Assembly (NCBI GenBank): GCA_018826905.1
Contig: JAHJYC010000005.1
Location: 46,681-110,680, forward strand
DNA: 64,000 bases
Source of the DNA: Patescibacteria group bacterium
GTDB lineage: Bacteria; Patescibacteriota; Minisyncoccia; Phycocordibacterales; Phycocordibacteraceae
Direction of reading: 5' to 3'
Shown here: positions 44,000 through 44,902 of the stretch, piece by piece
How positions within the stretch are numbered: the stretch's first letter is position 1
Layout of the letters: each line of letters opens with the position of its first letter
Notes under the pieces: model-generated
Told to the model about the DNA's origin: nothing
What the model saw: the letters and a program-made list of their open reading frames with translations, nothing else
Database searches by the model: none
Translations under genes and position numbers: made by a program

Positions 44000-44902
44000 A
44001 TGGCTAACCGGCATCTCGCACGTTCTGTTGTTCTACAAACCCTCTTTGAGTGGGACACGTCTAACGCTTCCAAAGAGGAAGCAGAAGCAGCGCTCCAGCG
44101 AAACGTAGAAGAGTTTGGAGGAGATGATACAGACAAGCCATTTATGGAATTGCTCCTCCAGGGAGTGCTTGCAAAGCAGCCCGATCTTGATTTGGTTCTC
44201 ACAAAGGCTGCCCCTGATTGGCCGCTAGACCGCATTGCTCCTGTTGATAGGAATATTCTTCGTATTGGGCTGTATGAGCTGTTGTTTTCAGATCGCGCAC
44301 AGGTACCTGCCAAGGTAGCTATAAACGAAGCTATTGAGCTTGCAAAAGTATTTGGTGGAGACTCCTCTGGTCGTTTTGTGAATGGAGTACTTGGGGCGGT
44401 ATACAAGGAACTTGGTGAGCCGGGCAAGGATGAGACCGGGAAGAAAGAGCGCGTGCGACGAGAAGATCTCCCGCTACAACAGCTTGGGGGCGCGATTGTA
44501 TACGCACATCACGAGGGCCAGTACTATCTCGCATTGGTGCATGACGTGTTTGGACACTGGACACTGTCTAAAGGAAAGATTGAAGAGGGAGAAAATGTAG
44601 AGGAGGGAACGGTGCGTGAGATAAAGGAAGAGCTTGGTCTTGAGGTAACAATCAGAAGCAAGATTGGAGAGAATGAGTACATTGCTTCGCATCCTGAGCA
44701 CGGGAAGATGCGAAAGCATGTATCCTATTTCCTTGCAGAGTCTGAGTATGAGGATATCAAGCTTGAAAAGAAGGGAGGACTGGATGATGCTCGTTGGTTT
44801 AGGCTCACCGATATCTTGGATCTTAATTTTTATGACGACATGCTCCCTATCGTTACAGAGGCAGTACAGAAGCTGCTTGATACTGCGCGGACCCGTGTGT
44901 AG
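44000..44902 (+). CDS. nusB: NusB antitermination factor fused to a C-terminal Nudix hydrolase domain.
   Basis: N-terminal half: '[30 protein letters not shown]', near-identical to canonical NusB. C-terminal half: Nudix box '[23 protein letters not shown]' (GX5EX7REUXEEXGU). Confidence 0.75.
   Translation: [300 protein letters not shown]

Follow-up and report, generated by a model that had tools for sequence, protein, structure and literature searches.

The locus and its product

The window analysed here is a 64-kb stretch of DNA whose forward strand carries, at positions 44000..44902, an open reading frame (ORF) of 300 amino acids plus a stop codon that starts with ATG and joins a NusB domain to a Nudix domain. 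According to both the ORF list and the sequence, the frame runs without an internal stop or break, and both Pfam domains are detected along it. The NusB domain covers 44000..44413 (+ strand, residues 1-138) and is followed by a flexible charged linker at 44414..44473 (+, residues 139-158), recognised by its low pLDDT in an AF2 model. The remainder of the protein, encoded at 44474..44899 (+, residues 159-300), is a Nudix domain of the Ap4A-hydrolase/NudH type, as judged by PF00293 and by sequence and fold matches. Within it, the Nudix box at 44573..44641 (+, residues 192-214) presents G192, E198, R206, E207, E210, E211 and G213 in an exact regex match to GX5EX7REUXEEXGU, which bears out the perfect box reported in a preliminary description of this DNA.

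NusB is a textbook single-domain factor. The N-terminal half of the window protein matches Pfam PF01029 over residues 7-136 (E=9e-36, 123.6 bits against a cutoff of 23.1) and the curated NCBIfam equivalog TIGR01951 (nusB) at 127 bits against a cutoff of 88.35. In the AF2 model, this half consists of seven helices over residues 2-138 with pLDDT mostly between 85 and 98, and Foldseek aligns it with Aquifex NusB from a NusB-NusE-RNA complex (3r2d_B) at a TM of 0.88 and an rmsd of 1.8 Å. The NusB residues that contact boxA RNA include F122, which stacks on U8, and an acidic residue at position 81 (PMC3177189). From an alignment to E. coli NusB, the equivalent of E. coli and Aquifex F122 is F126, invariant in 60 diverse fusions, and the equivalent of E81 is D83, which is 92% conserved. 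For the full-length protein, AF2 predicts a single continuous chain with two confident domains and no docking of the Nudix domain onto NusB. The pTM of the whole chain is 0.65 despite the confidence of both domains, and pLDDT drops below 50 at residues 141-150 of the linker. In this model, both domains are authentic and each folds independently.

Upstream of the fusion gene, rpmF (43567..43908, +), identified from PF01783 and its translation, encodes ribosomal protein L32, here with a C-terminal tail that is long and rich in K/E. Downstream, and 35 nt past the fusion stop codon, rnc (44938..45621, +) encodes RNase III with its Ribonuclease_3 and dsrm domains. This arrangement recurs among relatives. 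An rpmF gene precedes the fusion gene by less than 400 nt in 63 of 77 loci, and six of the eight distant loci have a called L32 gene on the upstream side. Likewise, rnc is found within 300 nt downstream in 60 of 74 clade loci, and the gap between the fusion gene and rnc measures between -8 and 26 nt in all eight distant loci. The order rpmF - nusB::nudix - rnc - smc is a conserved unit. Since nus genes are genetically linked to rnc and Nus factors have an rRNA-loop and chaperone role (PMC4807359, PMC6614801), the fusion-rnc operon, present in close and distant lineages alike, matches a known nus-rnc genetic link. No further Nus factor or Nudix gene was detected in the 29 neighbouring ORFs scanned, a set that does not take in some 18 others of 100 aa or more, the two longest (54123-57296 and 57309-61034) among them. 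Neither an S10 gene nor an rRNA leader was found among the scanned parts of the window, and no rRNA was found in the 64-kb window or in 85 related loci.

The short region between rpmF and the fusion gene contains three candidate control elements. A terminator scan identified a terminator-like hairpin with a T-tract (43934..43970, +) that has a 12 bp stem with 8 G-C pairs; comparable hairpins occur in many related loci. Next is a -10-like element, TATCCT (43972..43977, +), which reads TATACT in most relatives and is often preceded by TG. In related loci, this element ends 9-10 nt before a boxA-like core and 19-21 nt before the ATG. It is proposed from positional conservation only, since a strict sigma-70 scan gave no promoter in the region upstream of the fusion gene, and the transcription start of the fusion gene would be placed by this loose match.

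The boxA-like core itself, GCTCTTT (43987..43993, +), sits 7-13 nt before the ATG; the element reads GCUCUUUCC and its wider context, at 43986-43996, is CGCTCTTTTTA. It agrees with the published boxA consensus GYTCTTTAANA (PMC5725501) over the 7-nt core GYTCTTT only. Among relatives, 64 of 80 loci carry G[ACT]TCTTT in the 25 nt that precede the fusion gene, and the motif was not found in the same upstream stretch of four control genes (rnc 0/74, rpmF 0/78, rnhB 0/72, smc 0/69). Of the eight distant loci, only three have a boxA-like motif. The window contains 18 copies of GCTCTTT where 13.7 are expected, and the four control genes have none in front of them, so the idea of a general start-site motif was set aside. 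The copy at 24292 forms part of the EF-Ts terminator. Autoregulation by Nus factors has a published precedent (PMC5725501).

Distribution and continuity of the fusion

An identical protein (P0001, 100%) is present in NCBI and Logan on 6 contigs, and both Pfam domains occur in 239 of the 240 matches listed. Relatives are encoded in at least 308 species genomes of the window's clade, with a full-length fusion in every one of the best 80. The NusB-Nudix architecture is shared by at least 52 distinct clusters at 50% identity, of which one is in UniRef; their members bear the names Kaiser-, Nomura-, Moran-, Giovannoni- and Tagabacteria and Paceibacter. NusB-Nudix is the usual NusB across much of Parcubacteria/Paceibacteria. 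The earlier impression that the architecture is non-standard or rare must therefore be abandoned, as it is common in public databases. Every source annotates the fusion as "NusB" alone, and a literature search gave no paper that treats NusB of CPR bacteria or its fusion to a Nudix domain.

An apparent fusion may also arise through a frameshift, a faulty assembly or an erroneous gene call that runs two adjacent genes together. Public gene calls do contain 14 'Nudix-only' and 25 partial entries, some of which start at the linker or miss one half. Nevertheless, such an artefact is exceedingly improbable given that the fused ORF is intact in 80/80 species-representative loci and 8/8 distant loci (88 independent loci), which come from many independent assemblies and sources, and that AF2 yields one continuous chain with two confident domains. 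The linker is also under purifying selection, with a pN of 0.18 while pS is about 0.75. Since synonymous sites are saturated at this pS, regions of the protein were compared by pN alone and no dN/dS is reported; on that scale, the NusB domain of relatives has a pN of 0.12. The spacer between the conserved residues Y135 and G164 measures 27-31 residues in the window's clade (about 28 in the window protein) and 9-49 residues family-wide, with roughly 50% of them charged. Taken with the unbroken 300-aa ORF and the identical public protein, the 80 intact species loci uphold the continuous frame that was originally described.

A related proposal, that the fusion was born from adjacent split genes, drew no support from the 'Nudix-only' representatives, which mostly look like fragments or split calls. 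One such entry that was traced, P0249, is a genuine stand-alone gene on an integrase/methylase/RepO-like element, away from nusB.

Catalytic box and putative ligand pocket of the Nudix half

The C-terminal half matches PF00293 over residues 183-282 (E=3.7e-15, 56.6 bits against a cutoff of 21.1). With PF01029 and TIGR01951 also above their cutoffs, both halves retain the identities first assigned to them. The nearest solved relative by sequence is CT771 (4ilq, E=4.6e-8), followed by Ndx1, NUDT2 and the Aquifex Ap4A hydrolase, with MutT1 also among the matches. By its alpha/beta/alpha Nudix fold, the nearest are 3i7u (TM 0.86), 1vc8 (TM 0.84) and 4mpo (TM 0.77), and the Nudix domain of NrtR (3gz8) is among the top matches. 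Both sequence and modelled fold place the Nudix half in the Ap4A-hydrolase/NudH group. Within that group, it resembles the named enzymes and is not an orthologue of them, because the NCBIfam Nudix equivalog models all score far under their cutoffs (MutT1 31 vs 475, RppH 26 vs 118, NudC 29.5 vs 158).

The RExxEE stretch of the Nudix box binds metal (PMC5526541), and the box glutamates of NUDT2 are required for its ability to decap RNA in vitro (PMC7337524). In the window protein, all five box residues (E198, R206, E207, E210 and E211) are intact. Across relatives, the picture is mixed. The box is degenerate in 48 of 77 species (62%) of the window's own clade, in which E198 is kept in 44% and E207 in 39%. 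Natural degenerate variants include a MEGDE type and a PRVEE type. Among 120 mainstream members, 101 (84%) keep all five residues and 19 are degenerate, and the catalytic residues of these lineages are conserved at a mean of 0.97. For deep cluster representatives, the box is intact in 10 of 53 and degenerate in 43, although the 50%-cluster set from which they come over-represents fast-evolving singletons. Those 10 intact boxes had raised the notion of a dead relic throughout the family, which the mainstream sample rules out. From the mainstream sequences, catalysis is probably ancestral and still used. A neighbour-joining (NJ) tree suggests at least five catalytic losses among the 77 species, and in relatives no part of the protein is less constrained than the box, whose pN is 0.32 against 0.145 for the remainder of the domain.

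Outside the box, the Nudix domain behaves differently. The ratio of its pN to that of the NusB half is 1.00 in species with an intact box and 0.86 and 0.92 in two degenerate groups. Constraint on the Nudix fold matches that on the NusB half, and this holds also for lineages without the catalytic glutamates. Five residues, K191, Y227, K239, Y278 and D280, are 100% conserved in the 77 clade species, and all five are invariant in the 42 degenerate-box species. In the deep family, K191 and Y278 stand at 94% versus 25% for E207. In each of three sets, these positions exceed the other Nudix positions in conservation (p=0.0007, 0.027 and 0.003).

Structural work on NUDT2 provides a guide to what such residues may do. 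There, the P1-phosphate is bound by a His, Lys42, Tyr82 and Lys89, and the adenine is stacked by the pair Tyr82 and Phe128 (PMC4734340). In HMMER alignments, K191, K239, Y278 and D280 fall opposite K42, K89, F128 and E130 of NUDT2, and Y227 falls opposite the loop-5 Tyr of CT771 and Ndx1. H186, one of six mapped contact residues, aligns to the contact His but is poorly conserved. From this correspondence, we infer that K191, Y227, K239, Y278 and D280 form an adenine/phosphate pocket, and homology to Ap4A hydrolases would suggest the ligand. The conservation of W187, Y243 and W266 may simply reflect the fold core. Since the glutamates are often lost while the fold and pocket are kept, "activity" is not what selection maintains family-wide.

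These patterns bear on three other functions that the Nudix half might have. One is a housekeeping hydrolase of free ApnA, damaged NTPs and possibly alarmones that was fused to NusB in a streamlined genome and has no RNA substrate; fusion would then yield co-expression and, at most, local nucleotide clearance near the transcription complex. Its nearest characterised relatives by sequence and fold are indeed Ap4A/Ap6A hydrolases and MutT1, whose phosphate- and adenine-binding residues are present, and the box is intact in the window protein and in the large majority of mainstream members. A disordered linker with no fixed interdomain geometry predicted would also suit such an enzyme. However, a purely metabolic enzyme would be expected to decay or be deleted once its metal-binding glutamates are gone, yet the 42 degenerate species keep the domain at least as constrained as the NusB half. 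Moreover, both the fusion and its operonic pairing with rnc are retained over a range of 29% to 97% identity, which points to a role tied to NusB. On balance, a housekeeping function seems fairly unlikely.

Repeated catalytic loss under full constraint of the fold would be in keeping with a structural adaptor, by analogy one that bridges NusB/S10-boxA to RNA polymerase or other Nus factors and whose catalysis is a dispensable relic. SuhB is a precedent for such an arrangement (PMC4807359), and non-catalytic Nudix binding modules exist in the Nudix domain of NrtR (3gz8) and in CFIm25 (PMC3695940). An adaptor is nonetheless unlikely. The best-kept residues align to nucleotide and phosphate contacts that a protein-protein adaptor would not need, the mainstream catalytic residues are strongly conserved, and the AF2 model contains no docking of Nudix onto NusB. 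A third option is that the domain senses a small molecule such as Ap4A, ATP or another adenine nucleotide polyphosphate and tunes the binding of NusB to boxA, with hydrolysis resetting the signal, so that rRNA synthesis and nusB autoregulation follow the physiological state. Retention of the adenine/phosphate pocket with or without the catalytic residues would suit a sensor, ligands are sensed through a non-catalytic Nudix domain in regulators of the NrtR type (3gz8 being among the fold matches), and the upstream boxA-like element suggests regulated expression. Set against this, allosteric coupling is hard to picture across a disordered spacer of about 28 residues with no predicted interface, and no particular ligand is pointed to. 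A sensor role is thus very unlikely.

A proposed role at the 5' end of boxA RNA

The preferred reading, held tentatively and at a little under even chances, is that the protein is a genuine NusB with a tethered nucleotide-polyphosphate-binding Nudix domain that acts at the 5' end of boxA RNA. The NusB half would dock with S10 on the boxA RNA of rRNA leaders and probably also on that of the very short 5' UTR of its own mRNA. Docking would set the tethered Nudix pocket beside the 5' end of the same transcript, where it could bind the terminal nucleotide-polyphosphate, whether pppA or an NpnN-type cap. Since all five catalytic residues are intact in the window organism, its Nudix domain probably hydrolyses the transcript end in an RppH-like or decapping reaction, and hydrolysis would flag the leader for processing and degradation together with RNase III. 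Where sister lineages lack the glutamates, binding alone would be left to the domain. It is not obvious that the binding and hydrolysing forms share one role, as the two would have different consequences at the 5' end. One possible but doubtful formulation is a 5'-end reader/eraser built into an elongation/RNA-maturation factor, which hydrolyses when the glutamates are present, clamps when they are absent, and is coupled to both RNase III processing of rRNA and NusB autoregulation. For the window protein, the preliminary suggestion that an attached Nudix enzyme handles caps or alarmones at the antitermination complex is still plausible.

An entire radiation of ultra-small bacteria relies on a NusB of two domains that is hidden under the plain name "NusB", and annotation pipelines should report the second (Nudix) domain. 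We know of no link between bacterial Nus factors and RNA 5'-end chemistry. If the Nudix domain does act on or hold the 5' end of boxA RNA, antitermination and rRNA-chaperone complexes would be tied to triphosphate or cap removal, and this would be the first co-transcriptional 5'-end surveillance hard-wired into a Nus factor. It would also provide a natural series from enzyme to pseudoenzyme inside one clade. Proteins that are 74-97% identical differ in the catalytic glutamates while pocket and fold are kept, a natural experiment in which binding is separable from catalysis. The boxA-like element, in turn, would add Patescibacteria to the gamma-proteobacteria, the group in which Nus-factor autoregulation has been documented so far.

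Compared with canonical NusB of E. coli and Aquifex aeolicus, a single domain of about 140 aa, the fusion keeps the Arg-rich N-terminus in its NusB half and adds a linker plus Nudix domain of 160 residues. Turning to that addition, the ApnA hydrolases (Chlamydia CT771, Aquifex aq_158, Thermus Ndx1, human NUDT2 and mycobacterial MutT1/Rv2985) are the top sequence and fold matches. They share 22-28% identity with the window protein, whose Nudix box is identical, and they keep the box glutamates that many NusB-Nudix members have lost. The natural substrates of Ap4A hydrolases are free dinucleotides, and the known ApnA hydrolases are free-standing or fused to other domains but, to our knowledge, never to NusB. 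RNA 5' ends are the target of two further Nudix enzymes, RppH and eukaryotic Dcp2, and the window protein matches both weakly. Against RppH models it reaches 16-26 bits where the cutoffs are 116-241, so the protein is not an RppH orthologue. Dcp2 has a comparable layout of N-terminal helical domain, hinge and Nudix domain, although its whole-chain superposition on the fusion is poor (rmsd 11-15 Å). The resemblance to RppH and Dcp2 is one of possible function and not of membership.

Fusions and Nudix domains with other histories supply further parallels. RsmB/Sun, the 16S rRNA m5C967 methyltransferase, is one well-known case of a NusB-like N-terminal domain fused to an enzyme that acts on rRNA, and its NusB-like domain binds RNA. 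Its enzyme half is a SAM methyltransferase whereas the C-terminal half of the fusion is Nudix, and RsmB models reach at best 61.4 bits against a cutoff of 319, with the match confined to the NusB-like region. In NrtR and CFIm25, hydrolysis has been lost and the Nudix fold retained to bind a ligand or RNA, as in the fusion members with a degenerate box. CFIm25 (NUDT21) belongs to an RNA-processing complex, in which it is a Nudix protein that binds RNA (PMC3695940), and no decapping was seen with it (PMC7337524). Both differ from the window protein in that its box is intact, and their fusion partners and biology are other. SuhB, an inositol monophosphatase, bridges NusB/E-boxA and RNAP, has a growth role independent of its enzymatic activity and is linked genetically to rnc (PMC4807359). 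It differs in having the inositol monophosphatase fold and in being a separate polypeptide, and it bridges to RNAP and NusA. What the two would have in common is an enzyme fold recruited via NusB/boxA, and the dispensable catalysis of SuhB and its link to rnc parallel the box loss of the fusion and its rnc neighbour.

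The fusion gene and its spread

The fusion gene at positions 44000-44902 of the forward strand is one unbroken ORF of 300 codons beginning with ATG. Its product scores far over the Pfam gathering thresholds of PF01029 (NusB, residues 7-136, E=9e-36) and PF00293 (NUDIX, residues 183-282, E=3.7e-15), and passes TIGR01951, the NCBI equivalog model for NusB, with 127 bits against a cutoff of 88.35. Residues 192-214 are an exact fit to the Nudix box GX5EX7REUXEEXGU, with the catalytic residues E198, R206, E207, E210 and E211 all present. A protein 100% identical to the product is found in both NCBI and Logan, and a scan with one genome per species located close relatives in 308 species genomes, the best 80 of which all match the query end to end. 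Since the fused ORF is intact in each of those 80 species loci, an artefact is hardly conceivable. The fusion is genuine and retained throughout the family: one chain joins a true NusB to a true Nudix domain of the Ap4A-hydrolase type.

The family is also widely distributed. The best 120 matches to the window protein (NCBI, JGI, ENA and Logan) share 80-100% identity, are all about 297-316 amino acids long and carry both Pfam domains in all cases but one (119/120). An exhaustive search of 1.84 billion cluster representatives at 50% identity yielded 146 clusters with E<=1e-30; of the 150 top-ranked clusters, 52 are full fusions with 29-59% identity to the query, 25 are fragments spanning the NusB-Nudix junction, and the remainder are NusB-only or Nudix-only entries. 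A profile built from distant members only recovered 120 further proteins, all 120 with both domains and one in UniRef, from source-named organisms that include Paceibacter, Pacebacteria and Nomura-, Moran-, Giovannoni- and Tagabacteria. In every source, the fusions are annotated only as "transcription antitermination factor NusB" or "N utilization substance protein B", and no description of the architecture was found in the literature searched. The preliminary description is thus confirmed in what it observed and partly supported in its interpretation: the NusB-Nudix fusion and perfect box are real and the frame is continuous, but its assumption of rarity, which it would have given up for an architecture common in public databases, fails because the fusion is widespread across genomes and clusters. 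The fusion is abundant under a NusB label, yet effectively undescribed.

Many metagenome-assembled genomes with gene copies 74-91% identical (L002, L006, L013-L016 and others) are titled 'uncultured Candidatus Saccharibacteria bacterium', and L054, also with a Parcubacteria-type gene, is titled 'Bacillota bacterium'; these taxonomic labels look unreliable. Two close NusB relatives, P0151 (236 aa) and P0167 (264 aa), are 57-66% identical to the fusion in the NusB part and have the same LGEPGK linker start, followed by differing non-Nudix C-termini. Fusions may recur at the end of NusB, or the two proteins may be assembly chimeras. Three 'stand-alone' Nudix proteins (P0201, P0236 and P0241) look MutT-like from the N-terminus through the Nudix box (LLxQR...W..PGG) and are about 55-61% identical to the Nudix half of the fusion thereafter; they may be recombinants or chimeric assemblies. 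A genuine homologue of the Nudix half that stands alone is P0249 (L081, 4001-4453), with 150 amino acids, an intact box and 43% identity. Since its gene sits among integrase-, DNA-methylase- and Phage_rep_O-like genes, it is probably carried by a phage or another mobile element in a Patescibacteria host.

A tethered Nudix fold with an optional catalytic site

An AlphaFold2 model of the fusion protein (60-sequence alignment, mean pLDDT 90.3) places seven helices in residues 2-138 and a Nudix alpha/beta/alpha domain in residues 159-299, while residues 141-150 fall below a pLDDT of 50. The pTM is only 0.65, as expected of two rigid domains without a fixed mutual orientation. Between the conserved Y135 and G164, the spacer has 27-31 residues within the window's clade and ranges from 9 to 49 over the whole family, with roughly half of its residues charged. 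The tether is therefore flexible, and such a disordered linker makes it improbable that the fusion serves as a ligand sensor. Superposition of the N-terminal half on Aquifex NusB, taken from the NusB-NusE-RNA complex (3r2d_B), gives TM 0.88 and 1.8 A. By fold, the C-terminal half is closest to Aquifex Ap4A hydrolase (3i7u, TM 0.86) and then to the Thermus Ndx1 Ap6A hydrolase (TM 0.84), with further matches to Chlamydia CT771, the C. elegans and human Ap4A hydrolases and the Nudix domain of mycobacterial MutT1/Rv2985. Searching the PDB by sequence likewise puts dinucleoside-polyphosphate hydrolases closest. As the protein reaches no threshold among the NCBIfam Nudix equivalog models, the domain resembles the Ap4A-hydrolase group without being an orthologue of any named enzyme.

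The RExxEE of the Nudix box binds the essential metal (PMC5526541), and mutation of box glutamates inactivates NUDT2 (PMC7337524). All five catalytic residues are kept in 101 of 120 members of a mainstream family sample. Complete sets are much less frequent in the window's own clade (29 of 77 species), in close clusters at 90% identity (36 of 121) and in deep representatives clustered at 50% identity (10 of 53). A neighbour-joining tree of the 77 species scatters the losses over several positions: one large clade carries x-R-[V/I]-E-E, two branches of MEGDE type are embedded among intact sequences, and ERGEE, EREDE, ERAKE and ERKAE occur as singletons. Nowhere does the protein vary more among clade relatives than in the box, with a pN of 0.32 against 0.145 for the remaining Nudix domain and 0.12 for NusB; pN is given instead of omega because synonymous sites are saturated. 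Outside the box, the ratio of Nudix pN to NusB pN is 0.86 and 0.92 in two degenerate groups (31 and 11 species) and 1.00 in the 29 intact species. Judged by these ratios, the Nudix domain does not decay after catalytic loss. This full constraint argues against a housekeeping hydrolase of free nucleotides, a reading that is rather unlikely.

Ap4A hydrolases (human numbering) contact the P1 phosphate of their ligand through a His, Lys42, Tyr82 and Lys89; Tyr82 and Phe128 sandwich the adenine, to which Glu130 forms a hydrogen bond (PMC4734340). HMMER alignments, which use sequence only, map these contacts to H186, K191, Y227 (via CT771 and Ndx1), K239, Y278 and D280. All but H186, which is not conserved, are invariant in the 77 species, where the catalytic E198 and E207 stand at 44% and 39%. 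In the deep set, K191 and Y278 reach 94%, Y227 79% (91% aromatic), K239 74% (89% basic) and D280 75%, compared with 25% for E207, which ranks 112 of 131 positions. Conservation at the six positions exceeds that at the remaining Nudix positions in each of three samples (Mann-Whitney p=0.0007, 0.027 and 0.003), although some conserved positions had already been spotted before the mapping. Conservation of W187, Y243 and W266 may simply reflect the fold core. The catalytic site is thus optional in this family and has been lost repeatedly, while fold and pocket are retained. A structural adaptor comparable to SuhB is unlikely, given the conserved nucleotide pocket and the strong conservation of catalytic residues in mainstream lineages.

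The upstream boxA-like element and the rnc neighbourhood

NusB-NusE reads eight nucleotides of boxA, beginning at the NusB N-terminus, and boxA U8 stacks on NusB-F122 and is hydrogen-bonded to E81, with an F122D mutant being defective (Stagno et al., PMC3177189). Aligned to E. coli NusB, F122 corresponds to F126 of the fusion protein, invariant in 60 diverse fusion proteins, and E81 to D83, 92% conserved; the N-terminal R4 and R8 are more than 90% conserved. The NusB half therefore looks functional.

Between L32 and the fusion gene lie a terminator-like hairpin of 12 bp with a T-tract (43934-43960), a -10-like TATCCT (43972-43977) and a boxA-like CGCTCTTTTTA (43986-43996), 13 nt before the ATG. 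Of 80 loci, 64 carry the motif G[ACT]TCTTT in the 25 nt preceding the fusion gene (52 as GYTCTTT), and in the same loci it never occurs upstream of rnc (0/74), rpmF (0/78), rnhB (0/72) or smc (0/69); the window overall shows no enrichment of the heptamer. It forms the core of the gamma-proteobacterial consensus GYTCTTTAANA. In distant loci, GTTCTTTA... lies upstream in 3/8, one matching 10/11 consensus positions. With 9-10 nt between the end of the -10-like element and the motif, and an A-rich triplet just ahead of the motif, the mRNA is inferred to start near pppA(C)A-GCUCUUUCC-AUAUG. No Shine-Dalgarno sequence precedes the gene, and a strict promoter scan of its upstream region found no promoter. 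The order of a TATACACA element, terminator-like hairpin, TG-n-TATACT -10-like element and boxA-like core is conserved between window 43934-43996 and the same region of the 80 clade loci (L001-L080), where the G[C/T/A]TCTTT core sits 7-13 nt before the ATG. Baniulyte et al. (PMC5725501) showed that Nus factors regulate their own genes through boxA sites lying within 50 bp of the suhB, nusE and ribH-nusB start codons. The architecture here suggests a putative NusB autoregulation through a very short 5' UTR, and the candidate boxA would extend Nus autoregulation to Patescibacteria. A second GCTCTTT, in the stretch 24281-24306, lies 14 nt before the ATG (24306) of a small ORF that ends at 24715, has no Pfam match and precedes tRNA-Thr (24740-24815). 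This copy belongs to the hairpin and T-tract of the EF-Ts terminator and is probably coincidental.

Genes flanking the fusion are RNase HII (42591-43166), L32 (rpmF, 43567-43908), RNase III (rnc, 44938-45621) and a short SMC (45678-47891), in the order RNase HII, L32, fusion gene, RNase III, SMC. Among the 80 species loci, RNase III lies no more than 300 nt downstream in 60/74 and L32 no more than 400 nt upstream in 63/77; RNase HII is found upstream in 72/73 and SMC downstream in 63/67. In all eight distant lineages the fusion gene is followed by rnc with a gap of -8 to 26 nt, and smc comes after rnc, further downstream in one. The fusion gene is thus in an operon with RNase III. [quoted passage not shown]

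Several neighbours have features of their own. L32 has 113 amino acids in the window, with a long K/E-rich C-terminal tail, and 68-80 in distant lineages. The SMC after rnc is consistently a short form (737 aa in the window, 708-770 aa in relatives); a typical bacterial SMC is much longer, at about 1,150-1,200 aa. An RNase II/R-family exoribonuclease with RNB, CSD2 and S1 domains (49227-51191, reverse strand) and the S16-KhpA-TrmD ribosome-maturation genes (51277-52812) lie within a few kb, making the region rich in RNA-processing functions. In the distant locus L086, a second, separate Nudix gene (1087-1674, 195 aa, weak Pfam match) lies two genes upstream of the fusion. Elsewhere in the window, a CARDB-domain protein (31706-32485, reverse strand), a sortase (32615-33277) and two large ORFs without Pfam match (331 aa, 33283-34278; 711 aa, 34391-36526) likely form a cell-surface gene cluster (31706-36526), and an ORF of 1690 aa spans 125-5197.

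A possible role at the transcript 5' end

Functional statements on the fusion draw on homology and conservation, and the best-supported mechanism is put forward tentatively. NusB-S10 would dock on boxA RNA, allowing the tethered Nudix pocket to engage a nucleotide-polyphosphate nearby, for which the 5' end of the same transcript is the likeliest candidate. The window protein could then hydrolyse that RNA 5' end, and its degenerate relatives may only bind it. Three points support this. NUDT2-type enzymes decap RNA in vitro (PMC7337524). RsmB is a precedent in which a NusB-fold module with an RNA-binding role is fused to an rRNA-modifying enzyme, and its homology to the NusB half is seen in the NCBIfam matches. 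Finally, the fusion gene's own mRNA would carry the boxA-like core at its very 5' end. The series of enzymes and pseudo-enzymes inside one clade makes binding and catalysis directly separable. The NusB-Nudix architecture would surprise most workers on Nus factors.
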